Source of the DNA: an uncultured Hormoscilla sp.
Lineage (GTDB): Bacteria; Cyanobacteriota; Cyanobacteriia; Cyanobacteriales; Desertifilaceae
Assembly (NCBI GenBank): GCA_963921275.4
Contig: OZ001293.3
Span: 2,848,001 to 2,912,000, forward strand
DNA: 64,000 nucleotides
Direction of reading: 5' to 3'
Shown: positions 1 to 58,065 of the stretch, in pieces
Layout: every line of letters begins with the position of its first letter
How positions within the stretch are numbered: position 1 is the first letter of the stretch
Position numbers and translations under genes: made by a program
Notes under the pieces: model-generated
Databases searched by the model: none
What the model saw: the letters and a program-made list of their open reading frames with translations, nothing else
Told to the model about the DNA's origin: nothing

Positions 1-271
1 CATCCAGCTTTTCTGCGGGCATCAGGGCCAGGTCCAAGTAAGGATCGAAAGCTGTACCAGCTACATAATCATCAATTTGCATCATCAGCGAGGGCACCAA
101 ATTCACTGTCTGATGTAGTTTTGGGTAATTCTCCAGCAACAGCACCAAATCTAGATAATCTTTTGTACCATGTAAGCGCACCCAGGGTAAACGATAGCGA
201 TCGGCCACCCGGCTTTTGTAGAGGGGCTGATGCTGATGCCAGATAAAAGCGATATAAAGGGGATGAGACAT
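1..271 (-). CDS. Glycoside hydrolase family 57, N-terminus (runs off window start)
   Basis: Manual translation from ATG at 271: MSHPLYIAFIWHQHQPLYKS...YRLPWVRLHGTKDY, the GH57 HxHQP motif; not in ORF track because it is open at the edge. Confidence 0.85.
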   Translation of the reverse strand, partial: MSHPLYIAFIWHQHQPLYKSRVADRYRLPWVRLHGTKDYLDLVLLLENYPKLHQTVNLVPSLMMQIDDYVAGTAFDPYLDLALMPAEKLD

Positions 272-276
272 AAGAT

Positions 277-309
277 AGTTCGCAGTTCGTAGTTCGTAGT
301 TCGTAGTTC
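277..309. repeat. Heptamer tandem repeat (AGTTCGT)n, STRR-type
   Basis: About 4.5 copies read directly. Confidence 0.8.
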
Positions 310-468
310 CTCACAGCGCTGCGTTTAAACGGGTGCATCTGGTATAAAGTCCGCGAACTCTATTGACCAATAACCCATATTAAAACATTAAAAACGTCAA
401 AGGCAAAAGAAACAGAGCCGATTCTTTTGCCTTTGAACTACAGAAGCCGAGAATGGTTTTACCTTAAA

Positions 469-738
469 TTACAGCACTTGCTCCACTTCAGCAATCTCGG
501 GGATGTACTCTCGCAGGCGGCGCTCAATTCCCATTTTCAGAGTCATAGTAGAGCTAGGACAAGAACCACAGGCACCTTGTAGCCGCAGTTTGACAACGGG
601 ACCGTCAATCTCTGTCAACTCTACATTACCGCCGTCAGCCATCAGATAAGGGCGCAGTTCATCCAGAACCGCTTCCACGTTCTCGGGTGTGAGTTCCAAT
701 GGGCCTTCTAATGGGGCTTCTAATGTTGCTTGAGACAT
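469..738 (-). CDS. nfuA: NifU C-terminal-domain Fe-S scaffold (Nfu)
   Basis: [13 protein letters not shown]...[11 protein letters not shown]xxC motif. Confidence 0.9.
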
Positions 739-3359: not shown

Positions 3360-3432
<73 letters not shown>

Positions 3433-9429: not shown

Positions 9430-9813
9430 CTATACCCGCGCACCAGCACGTTCCGCCACAAAATTCAGCGCATTCCGACAAGCGTTGTACTCTTGGTTTG
9501 TGGTCGGCAACTCATCACCGGTCTTGAAACTCAGCGATCGCAGCACCGCATTGACACCGGTGGTGGCATTGGAGACAAAGGCCAACTCAGTCTCGTCAGC
9601 ACCGACAAACGCCCCTAACTGACAGCGAGCATCATCCAGCAGCGGTTCCAAATCCCGAACAAAAAAGCCTACAGGATTGCGCTCCAACTGAGATCGCCAA
9701 TATTGCTGCCGTTCTAGTACCGGTAGCGGACAGGCCCCAAAAGATCCATGATTGAGATAGGCCAATGTTGGATCGAGGTACCAGAACTCCCTCCAATCAG
9801 TTTCCTGATACAT
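9430..9813 (-). pseudogene. Class V PLP aminotransferase (isopenicillin-N-epimerase-like), N-terminal third only
   Basis: YLNHGSFGACP, FVSNATTGVNAVLRSL; ends after 127 aa. Confidence 0.8.
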
Positions 9814-9980: not shown

Positions 9981-10318
9981 CTCCCCAGGCTGGATTCGAA
10001 CCAGCGACCAATCGGTTACACTTATCCCCACGTTTCCGCAGGGGGCGGACTATCTCATCATCCTGATGGGATGTCGGGCGCTTGTGGGATTTATTGGACA
10101 GGCTCCTCATCCCTAGTCTCTGCACCTTTCTGGCTACCTGTGGAAACCACCGCCTTTCGCCAGACTTGGCTCAGGATTACCGGCATCCTAAATGCTACGG
10201 CTTCCCTGAATTCACCCGATTTTCCACTATTCGTTACCGAATAGCGCTGCTAAGTCATCGATGCAGCACTTGCATCTGTTCCAAACAGCCGATCGCTCTA
10301 CCGCTGAGCTACTGAGGA
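9981..10318 (-). tRNA. trnN: tRNA-Asn(GTT), intron-containing (exons 10318-10285 and 10018-9981)
   Basis: Joined exons give TCCTCAGTAGCTCAGCGGTAGAGCGATCGGCTGT^TAACCGATTGGTCGCTGGTTCGAATCCAGCCTGGGGAG, a 72-nt cloverleaf with GTT anticodon. Confidence 0.93.
10019..10284 (-). ncRNA. Group I self-splicing intron (266 nt) in the tRNA-Asn anticodon
   Basis: 5' exon ends in U, intron ends in G; P/Q/R/S-like AATTCAGGGAA, AATCCTGAGC, GTGCAGAGACTA, GAGATAGTCC; P3 TCGGGTG/CGCCCGA; P7 GACTA/TAGTC; GNRA-capped P2 and P9. Confidence 0.9.
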
Positions 10319-10330
10319 TTGACATTTACT

Positions 10331-10360
10331 AATGTAGCAAGACTCGATCTGATTTGTCAA
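10331..10360 (-). promoter_or_regulatory. Sigma70-type promoter of tRNA-Asn
   Basis: TTGACA, 18 bp spacer, TACATT with TG extension. Confidence 0.6.
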
Positions 10361-10387: not shown

Positions 10388-10930
10388 CTATTTCAGACCC
10401 ATCCGCAACTGGGCGAGACGCGCTTGAGTGCTGGGGTCTAGGGATTTTACCATAAATCTGCTAGATGATTTTTTGGCTGGTAACTGGTGCCGGCCCACCT
10501 TACTGGTCATTGATGCCACCTCCGAGGCCAACTGAGTTGCGGAAATGCATTCTGCCCCATATCCCACCACCGTCACTTGCTGAACTTGGTCTGAGGTGAC
10601 CGCGATTATTCGCTGCCGGTACTTCCGCACATCGTCGCGAAACTTGGCACAGGTTATCTCTATATAAGAATCTGCTGTTTAGCCAAACTCAGTGTAATGG
10701 ACCGATAAGTTTTCCGTCACCACCTCGCGAGTCTTGGGGGTGTAATGAGCATCAAACACCAGGATAATCTCAAAACCCTGCCAGGCACTGTAATTAGTTA
10801 ACACCTCAACCAGCTGCTCGCGCGCCGCCTGTAGACCGTGGCGCGCGAGGGTCTTTTGCAGCGAAGTCCATGCTCCGATCACGTTGTAGCCGTCCACCAG
10901 CACAACTGCTTTTGGTAATGCCCGTCCCAT
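10388..10930 (-). pseudogene. NYN-domain (YacP/Rae1-like) ribonuclease with in-frame TAA
   Basis: VLVDGYNVIG, LVFDA, then HYTEFG*TADSYIE...IIAVTSD in the same frame across the stop at 10679-10681. Confidence 0.85.
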
Positions 10931-56355: not shown

Positions 56356-57849
<1,494 letters not shown>

Positions 57850-58065
57850 ATTTGATTATTCTATCATCCTGGGCGAACTGAGGGCAAGAAAGTAGTTTGT
57901 AGTTCCTACGAACGTGCCTGAAATTCCCACATATCAAGGGTTTTAGTCTATACTGCCCCAATTTTTACTTGACAATATTTTACATAGTGGCGAAAACTGA
58001 TGTCAGAGCAACGGGCCAGATCGCATGCTATACTATAGAGGTAGTTTCCATATCCAAGCTGACTG

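Follow-up and report, generated by a model that had tools for sequence, protein, structure and literature searches.

The stretch of DNA analyzed here (the window) covers 64,000 nucleotides (nt) of an uncultured Hormoscilla sp. (contig OZ001293.3, positions 2,848,001 to 2,912,000) and carries on its minus strand a tRNA-Asn(GUU) gene whose anticodon is interrupted by an insert, very probably a group I ribozyme intron lodged in the anticodon loop between U35 and U36. The 5' exon contributes the acceptor strand UCCUCAG, the D arm and the anticodon-stem strand AUCGG, followed by CUGU. The 3' exon resumes with UAA and CCGAU, has UGGUC as its variable loop, and continues through the T arm to CUGGGGA as acceptor strand and a discriminator G, CCA not being encoded (Table 1). 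With the exons joined in silico at GU^U, ARAGORN called tRNA-Asn(gtt) in 93/93 cases, namely the window and the 92 homologous loci described below, and the window cloverleaf is perfect. Moreover, U at position 1 and a discriminator G (G73) are found together in 92/92 homologous loci. An excerpt of a published paper describes U1 as conserved in cyanobacterial tRNA-Asn and tRNA-Gln, nearly all other tRNAs having G1 (PMC5733544).

The insert matches the Rfam group I model RF00028 (Intron_gpI) at 10273-10026 on the minus strand with 84.9 bits (E 3.5e-20, model positions 1-253 of 253), above the gathering score of 50 bits, and this is the only match of the model within the 64 kilobases (kb). An earlier note on this DNA had proposed a 266-nt group I intron ending in G, placed at the 35/36 position of tRNA-Asn(GUU), free of an endonuclease open reading frame (ORF) and recognizable by an Infernal-type covariance model. 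The match and the covariation described below bear this out, with the same coordinates, and no sense-strand ORF of 50 amino acids (aa) or more was found within the insert (10019-10284); Pfam matched neither of the two antisense ORFs there (57 and 77 aa). The minimum-energy fold of the pre-tRNA reaches -125 kcal/mol (z -3.36), a stability attained by 0/100 shuffles, and contains, unguided, P1 (formed by exon and guide), a hairpin in the P1 loop, P2, P4/P5, an extra stem and P9.

Helices P1 to P9 were placed by hand on the window sequence and then checked on a MAFFT alignment (A2) of 24 sequences, with 64 pairs in 13 helices. A2 consists of the window, 9 cyanobacterial sequences and 14 others with the window-type extra stem, out of 93 available; sequences that MAFFT aligned well were chosen, and introns longer than 315 nt (including the long ORF-bearing ones) and other structural types were excluded. 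Results showed standard pairs in 93.7% of the cells, versus a shuffle mean of 79.5% and 32-43% when the partners were slid by 1-3 columns. Double-change pairs numbered 37 of 64 (shuffle mean 25.6), and the covariation score was 0.435, versus 0.162 on average in shuffles and 0.06-0.09 after sliding. All three measures were reached by 0/500 shuffles. As the structure was taken from one of the aligned sequences, it has an advantage over the slid versions, a bias that the size of the gap makes immaterial. Double changes were most frequent in P2, P9, P6a (5/6 pairs), P4 and the extra stem. The core is present from P3 to P9 with the P3/P7 pseudoknot, and P2, P3, P4, P6, P6a, P8 and P9 covary. The window holds the invariant residue at every invariant column (including P7, J8/7, the U.G pair and the terminal G), which is true by definition for one of the 24 rows. 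The intron ends in G at 10019; across the family this G was built into the search pattern, so it is no independent evidence.

The earlier note had also assigned to the guide at 10253-10246 both P1 and P10. P1 stands. Its U.G wobble falls on the final base of the exon, right at the 5' splice site, and the C-G, U-A, G-C and U.G pairs are invariant in 24/24 sequences, the same P1 appearing in the minimum-energy fold. P10 can form in the window, where the guide UUA could pair with the exon UAA over 3 base pairs (bp), but it did not hold up as a conserved feature. Three contiguous pairs are available in 2 of the 24 sequences (the window and its closest relative), two in 7, one in 1 and none in 14; P10 is thus not a family feature. 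For the Anabaena pre-tRNA intron, Zaug et al. 1993 are said to have found the requirement to be exon pairing in the anticodon stem. The P1-loop hairpin occupies the site at which relatives carry an endonuclease ORF, and cyanobacterial relatives have other, longer hairpins there. Within the intron, AGUGCUGC (10263-10270 minus) mimics the 5' exon and could form 8 bp with GCAGCGCU in the guide region. Only the window and a second Hormoscilla (locus L004) allow this pairing, which overlaps the P1-loop hairpin; it may be a potential folding competitor or a chance match and is not a conserved helix.

A further proposal of the earlier note, a GGGAU/AUCCC stem between P7 and P3', was confirmed, its outer pairs changing on both sides in 5/5 cases. 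The stem also covaries among cyanobacteria alone, where CGGAU/GUCCG, GGAAU/GUUCC and GAGAU/AUCUC stand in place of the window pairs, and inside it are an internal loop with the conserved sequence UGAGGA...CCAAUAA and a short GG(A)/(U)CC helix. A script parsed the P7-P3' segment in 74 of the 93 introns and found at least 29 nt in 60, 9-28 nt in 10 and 8 nt or less in 4; most of the tRNA-Asn intron family has an insert here. Three forms occur: the window type (cyanobacteria, Nitrospirota, delta-proteobacteria, Margulisiibacteriota and some Saccharimonadota), a two-hairpin type (most Patescibacteria) and a minimal type. We suppose that the extra stem buttresses the core. Only 4/74 parsed introns are minimal, and the idea that the stem substitutes for a P8 tetraloop receptor is speculation. 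In P5, non-cyanobacterial window-type introns have a CCUAAG...(U/G)A(U/A)GG motif, which resembles the 11-nt GAAA-tetraloop receptor. The cyanobacterial P5 (window 10180-10200) reads CCGCAG...GGCGG or CCGUAG...GCCGG, yet the P9 loop is still GAAA.

Table 1. Features of the tRNA-Asn locus in the window and ORFs in related introns
Feature	Position	Strand	Details
YacP-like NYN-domain gene	10388-10930	minus	in-frame stop (...YTEFG*TADSY...)
Promoter-like site	10331..10360	minus	TTGACA, 18 nt, TACATT (with TG); ends 13 nt upstream of the tRNA; 10/12 consensus positions; suggestive only
tRNA-Asn(GUU) pre-tRNA	10318-9981	minus	338 nt; insert separates anticodon positions 35 and 36
5' exon	10285..10318	minus	34 nt, ending ...CUGU; acceptor 5' strand, D arm, anticodon-stem 5' strand, C32 U33, G34 U35
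Group I intron (very probable)	10019..10284	minus	266 nt, ORF-less, terminal G at 10019
P1-loop hairpin	10260..10276	minus	GAUGCA/UGCAUC, 5-nt loop, 17 nt; in minimum-energy fold
Internal guide sequence UUAGCAGC	10246..10253	minus	P1: GCAGC plus the A before it, paired with exon GCUGU and the first U of the intron
P2	10227..10244	minus	7 bp, GUAA tetraloop; both-side changes in 7/7 pairs, 24 sequences
P3 5' strand UCGGGUG	10213..10219	minus	partner 10080-10074; 100% of cells pair, 2 double-change pairs
P4-P5 domain	10171..10209	minus	P4 covaries in 4/5 pairs; P5 base conserved; distal P5 fitted by eye only
P6/P6a domain	10124..10170	minus	both-side changes in 7/9 pairs
P7 5' strand G-A-GACUA	10114..10120	minus	partner 10052-10047; invariant in 24/24
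Extra stem-loop between P7 and P3'	10086..10113	minus	outer GGGAU (10113-10109)/AUCCC (10090-10086), inner GGA/UCC; in minimum-energy fold
P3 3' strand CGCCCGA	10074..10080	minus	A2 helix 3
P8	10060..10072	minus	AUCC/GGAU, 5-nt loop; 97.9% of cells pair, 2 double-change pairs
P7 3' strand UAGUCC	10047..10052	minus	preceded by J8/7 GAUGAGA; RF00028 match and A2
P9	10026..10043	minus	7 bp, GAAA tetraloop; both-side changes in 7/7 pairs
3' exon	9981..10018	minus	starts UAACCGAU; U36, A37 A38, anticodon-stem 3' strand, variable loop, T arm, acceptor 3' strand, G73
Class-V aminotransferase fragment	9430-9813	minus	127 aa, profile positions 41-116 of 371; 402 aa in Phormidium (L033)
Intact ORFs in related introns	intron positions about 16-540		L008, L011, L014, L022, L026, L027, L037, L039, L040, L042, L043, L063

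We scanned genomes for the junction pattern, that is a G, then UAA, then the tRNA-Asn 3' half, and found it in at least 118 species genomes or loci from more than 25 named phyla by record title, the sequence itself being public in at least 118 genomes. The loci include 13 from Cyanobacteriota, 12 from Saccharimonadota, 10 from Omnitrophota and 7 from Pseudomonadota; among the matches listed there are further 5 each from Bacillota, Nitrospirota and Planctomycetota, many other Patescibacteria groups and 29 without a phylum label. The cyanobacterial carriers, at least 13, are Microcoleus (5), Tychonema, Hormoscilla, Phormidium, Floridaenema (2), an Oscillatoriaceae metagenome-assembled genome (MAG) and 2 other MAGs. 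A tRNA-Asn 5' half ending in YUGU was located by script 184-590 nt upstream in 92 of the 118 matches listed. The remaining 26 comprise 24 with 300 nt or less of upstream DNA, one with a spurious 5'-exon call despite a group I match (L019), and L060 (Isoptericola variabilis, Actinomycetota). L060 matches the pattern and has no tRNA-Asn 5' half within 1500 nt upstream; the insert may be very long, the 5' exon may end differently, or the match may be due to chance.

RF00028 scored above its gathering score beside the 3' exon in 37/40 loci tested (18/20 and 19/20), and the three misses reached 49.9 bits, 47.5 bits and, for L015 (Clostridium), no match at E 0.01. With this family, which was defined from the scan, the window shares the insertion point, a homologous core and intact exons. 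The pre-tRNA had no match in phage and plasmid collections. Near-identical or tightly clustered introns were seen under different phylum labels in L092/L105 (Chloroflexota-Gemmatimonadota), L066/L107 (Collierbacteria-Pseudomonadales) and L052/L086 (Methylomirabilota-Rokubacteria), where recent transfer, naming differences or binning errors are possible.

Introns of 519-590 nt make up 14 of the 92, their extra DNA lying upstream of P3. In 12 of these 14 an intact ORF of 101-173 aa occupies the P1 loop, starting 16-68 nt past the 5' splice site (Table 1); the ORF looks degenerate in L009 and L064. Against the first sequence of their alignment, the proteins show 56-74% identity; they come from hosts that include Parcubacteria, Nitrospirota, Planctomycetota and Myxococcota, and share the invariant motifs CxxCGY, HH and CANCH. 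A profile of the 12 proteins matched a group II intron maturase in its endonuclease domain (6me0_C, E 6.7e-5) as well as McrA (6ghc_A, E 2e-3). This suggests that the intron ORFs are HNH-like and that they may function in homing. The guide GCAGC lies inside the last codons of some of them (e.g., L014 and L026), and several extend into P2 and beyond. The window copy, having no endonuclease ORF, is not a mobile intron in this sense.

We also compared the window with its cyanobacterial relatives. The closest among the matches listed is Hormoscilla sp. SP12CHS1 (L004), with a pre-tRNA 95.9% identical by BLAST, the same terminal intron G and 3' exon (39 bases) and flanks 94.6% identical over 2250 bp. 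The pre-tRNA identity to the window is 83% in Phormidium sp. R1S1, ~82% in Floridaenema and ~75% in Microcoleus/Tychonema, and the core is ~67-73% identical to the most similar listed loci from other phyla (e.g., Nitrospiraceae). The Phormidium and Floridaenema loci share the neighbors of the window gene, upstream a YacP-like NYN gene and downstream a class-V aminotransferase gene. A quick maximum-likelihood tree was made from the 93 intron cores, the exon columns being left out. On it the 9 labelled cyanobacterial rows amount to one label change, a value as low being obtained in 0/500 shuffles, and they are nested in a 36-row clade (starred in the tree) with Omnitrophota, Nitrospirota, Planctomycetota and delta-proteobacterial rows. 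The earlier note had proposed an independent acquisition. An acquisition private to the window genome did not survive the comparison, as the cyanobacterial carriers counted above and many phyla share the intron and the flanking genes are conserved in three genomes. From its sequence relatives, the intron looks like one old presence in filamentous cyanobacteria (Hormoscilla, Phormidium, Floridaenema, Microcoleus and Tychonema), inherited rather than newly acquired.

Around the tRNA gene, a consensus promoter scan gave 3 sites per 1 kb versus 1.0 expected, one of them just upstream (Table 1), and no terminator-like site was found at the locus. Both neighbors appear disrupted in the window genome. 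The YacP-like gene contains an in-frame stop, its orthologue in Phormidium (L033 558-1106) being uninterrupted over 182 aa, and the aminotransferase fragment is probably a pseudogene; together, the broken genes hint at genome erosion. Elsewhere in the window, a thiamine pyrophosphate (TPP) riboswitch (57755-57853 minus, 70 bits) and a tRNA-Phe(GAA) (3360-3432 plus) are both ordinary.

These data can be assembled into a mechanism. A single 338-nt precursor would be transcribed, probably from the promoter-like site, and its intron would fold into a compact core of P1-P9 with the P3/P7 pseudoknot, GNRA loops on P2 and P9 and the covarying extra stem-loop. The GCAGC guide would pair with the exon end GCUGU and bring a U.G wobble to the 5' splice site. 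Splicing would then take the usual group I route, in which free guanosine would cleave after U35, the terminal G (10019) would enter the G site, and exon ligation would yield mature tRNA-Asn(GUU). In the family, the intron probably reaches tRNA-Asn genes that lack it by means of the HNH-like endonuclease ORF of some members. The analysis itself shows the fold of the intron, its boundaries and homology, and that the tRNA is intact; the chemistry and the splicing in vivo we infer. We also put forward, as a tentative and rather doubtful proposal, that the tRNA-Asn(GUU) 35/36 introns form an undescribed pan-bacterial mobile lineage present in at least 25 phyla. It would have its own small HNH-type endonuclease, with the guide in the C-terminal codons, and a P7.1-like domain on a compact tRNA-type core. 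In filamentous cyanobacteria it would also occupy a third tRNA site besides Leu(UAA) and fMet, be retained vertically within one clade and be systematically mis-annotated or missed, which would leave those genomes seemingly devoid of tRNA-Asn.

Several observations weigh against the main interpretation, a group I intron in tRNA-Asn that splices by the above mechanism, starting with the splicing activity itself, which is deduced from sequence. P7 pairs in 100% of A2 cells and never varies, and the G-site region is likewise invariant, so covariation is uninformative for both. P1 is short (5 exon pairs and 1 intron pair), P10 is weak across the family, and the Rfam alignment chose AGUGCUGC, the competing fold, as the P1 5' strand. 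As for mobility, Pfam HNH scored 17.5-20.5 bits in 5/6 proteins, below the 21.4 cut-off, with no match in the sixth, and NCBIfam returned nothing for 3/3 intron ORFs. The cyanobacterial monophyly has a weak branch support of 56. Finally, the genes next to the tRNA look broken, and therefore a decaying locus, in which splicing has been lost or the tRNA has fallen out of use and the cell relies on another trnN, keeps a small share of probability. The internal 8-bp competitor of the guide points the same way. We nonetheless consider such a relic very unlikely, given that the exons make a perfect cloverleaf, the invariant A2 residues are all kept (by definition, the window being among the 24 rows), the minimum-energy fold favors the true P1, and the copy is 95.9% identical to that of a separate species genome. 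Cyanobacteria usually have one tRNA-Asn gene. The low frequency of tRNA-Asn genes mentioned in an excerpt of PMC5733544 was likewise counted against a relic.

The intron could also be real and depend in vivo on a host protein, such as a chaperone or a maturase-like factor. The window intron has a short P1 and P10 and encodes no protein of its own, and protein-assisted splicing is described for several group I introns in an excerpt of a review (PMC3984707). On the other side stand a core complete with a stabilizing periphery (the GNRA loops on P2 and P9 and the extra stem), the absence of any sign of a dedicated factor in the window, and the efficient self-splicing in vitro of the related compact Azoarcus pre-tRNA intron (excerpt of PMC13168695). 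On balance we find such a dependence unlikely. A third possibility concerns the tRNA itself, which could be read as tRNA-Thr(UGU) with an intron of the same length two bases further upstream, the 5' exon ending in CU, the intron in ...AAG and the 3' exon starting with UGUAA.... This is indeed what ARAGORN returns with introns enabled, a check that the earlier note had proposed: the tool detects the gene, but as tRNA-Thr (tgt) i(33,266), shifted by two bases. In the family it gives the wrong anticodon in 50/93 cases, 28 of them Thr(tgt) including the window, and Asn in 43/93. The shifted intron likewise terminates in G in the window. Bacterial tRNA-Thr has G1 and A or U at position 73. We rejected the tRNA-Thr reading because the U.G pair sits at U35 in 24/24 sequences, whereas after the shift the exon would end in U33, opposite an A of the guide and not a G; because the shift leaves a terminal G in just 51/93 family members; and because U1 together with G73 in 92/92 loci speaks against Thr, U1 being the cyanobacterial tRNA-Asn/tRNA-Gln trait (excerpt of PMC5733544). 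It is hardly credible, and the group I intron in tRNA-Asn(GUU) is the interpretation we retain.

As the earlier note had warned, annotation tools can overlook the gene: default ARAGORN and the Rfam tRNA model report only the tRNA-Phe in the 64 kb, and default ARAGORN found 0/93 genes of the family. Carrier genomes seem to be without tRNA-Asn or with a spurious tRNA-Thr(UGU), which distorts checks of tRNA complement and completeness, and a junction pattern or a dedicated model would repair the annotation in at least 118 species. The classic cyanobacterial tRNA introns (Leu and fMet) are extended to a third tRNA, and the cyanobacterial copies are tied to a family across distant phyla with an HNH-like endonuclease, a good setting in which to follow how introns are gained, lose their ORFs and are kept by vertical descent. 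If this is the sole trnN, all asparagine codons in the cell would depend on ribozyme splicing. In addition, the covarying P7-P3' domain, set on a core that is minimal in other respects, is a natural experiment in how the periphery stabilizes small group I ribozymes.

In the open-access full-text literature, we did not find a group I intron named in a bacterial tRNA-Asn, and Asn is not mentioned in the excerpts of the group I review PMC3984707. Excerpts of other papers report only Leu and fMet introns in cyanobacteria in earlier work, with short 'introns' in Arg, Gly and Lys added (PMC5733544), fMet and Ile2 introns missed by tRNAscan-SE (PMC8450103), and group I introns in some tRNAs of the Candidate Phyla Radiation, where they are frequent according to a private communication cited there (PMC8172020). 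The cyanobacterial tRNA-Leu(UAA) intron resembles the window intron in being ORF-less, about 250 nt long, situated in the anticodon loop, with P1 made from the 5' side of the anticodon stem-loop, and missed by standard tRNA finders. It differs in its host, which in the window is tRNA-Asn, interrupted at 35/36, and not tRNA-Leu(UAA). The extra P7-P3' stem-loop and the P1-loop hairpin also set the window intron apart, the absence of the stem from the Leu intron being taken from the earlier note. The Synechocystis tRNA-fMet intron with its homing endonuclease, whose gene is directed at the anticodon region and was reportedly described by Bonocora and Shub in 2001, is like the tRNA-Asn family an anticodon-loop group I intron, some tRNA-Asn members also bearing an endonuclease. 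The host tRNA is different, the fMet enzyme has another nuclease fold while the tRNA-Asn family ORFs are HNH-like, and the window copy is ORF-less.

The tRNA-Ile(CAU) intron of Azoarcus sp. BH72 (IC3) is, like the window intron, a compact bacterial pre-tRNA anticodon-loop intron without a P5abc-type extension. It has GNRA tetraloops on P2 and P9, joins P7 to P3' by a short segment and carries a tetraloop receptor in P8. The window intron likewise lacks a P5abc-like extension but has a covarying 28-nt stem-loop between P7 and P3' and a plain 4-bp P8. It is also longer, 266 nt versus 205 nt (excerpt of PMC13168695). As for the subgroup IA introns (phage td and Twort), their hosts are mostly phage protein genes. 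Their P7.1/P7.2, like the window stem, are extra helices between P7 and P3', and the patescibacterial tRNA-Asn members carry two hairpins there. Unlike in subgroup IA, the rest of the window core, which we take to be IC3-like, aligns with the general Rfam model. An excerpt of PMC3984707 counts P7.1 and P7.2 among the class-defining peripheral elements, and the position of the extra stem corresponds to theirs. In conclusion, the intron is in kind a textbook bacterial tRNA anticodon-loop group I intron, and the same site is occupied in many bacteria.

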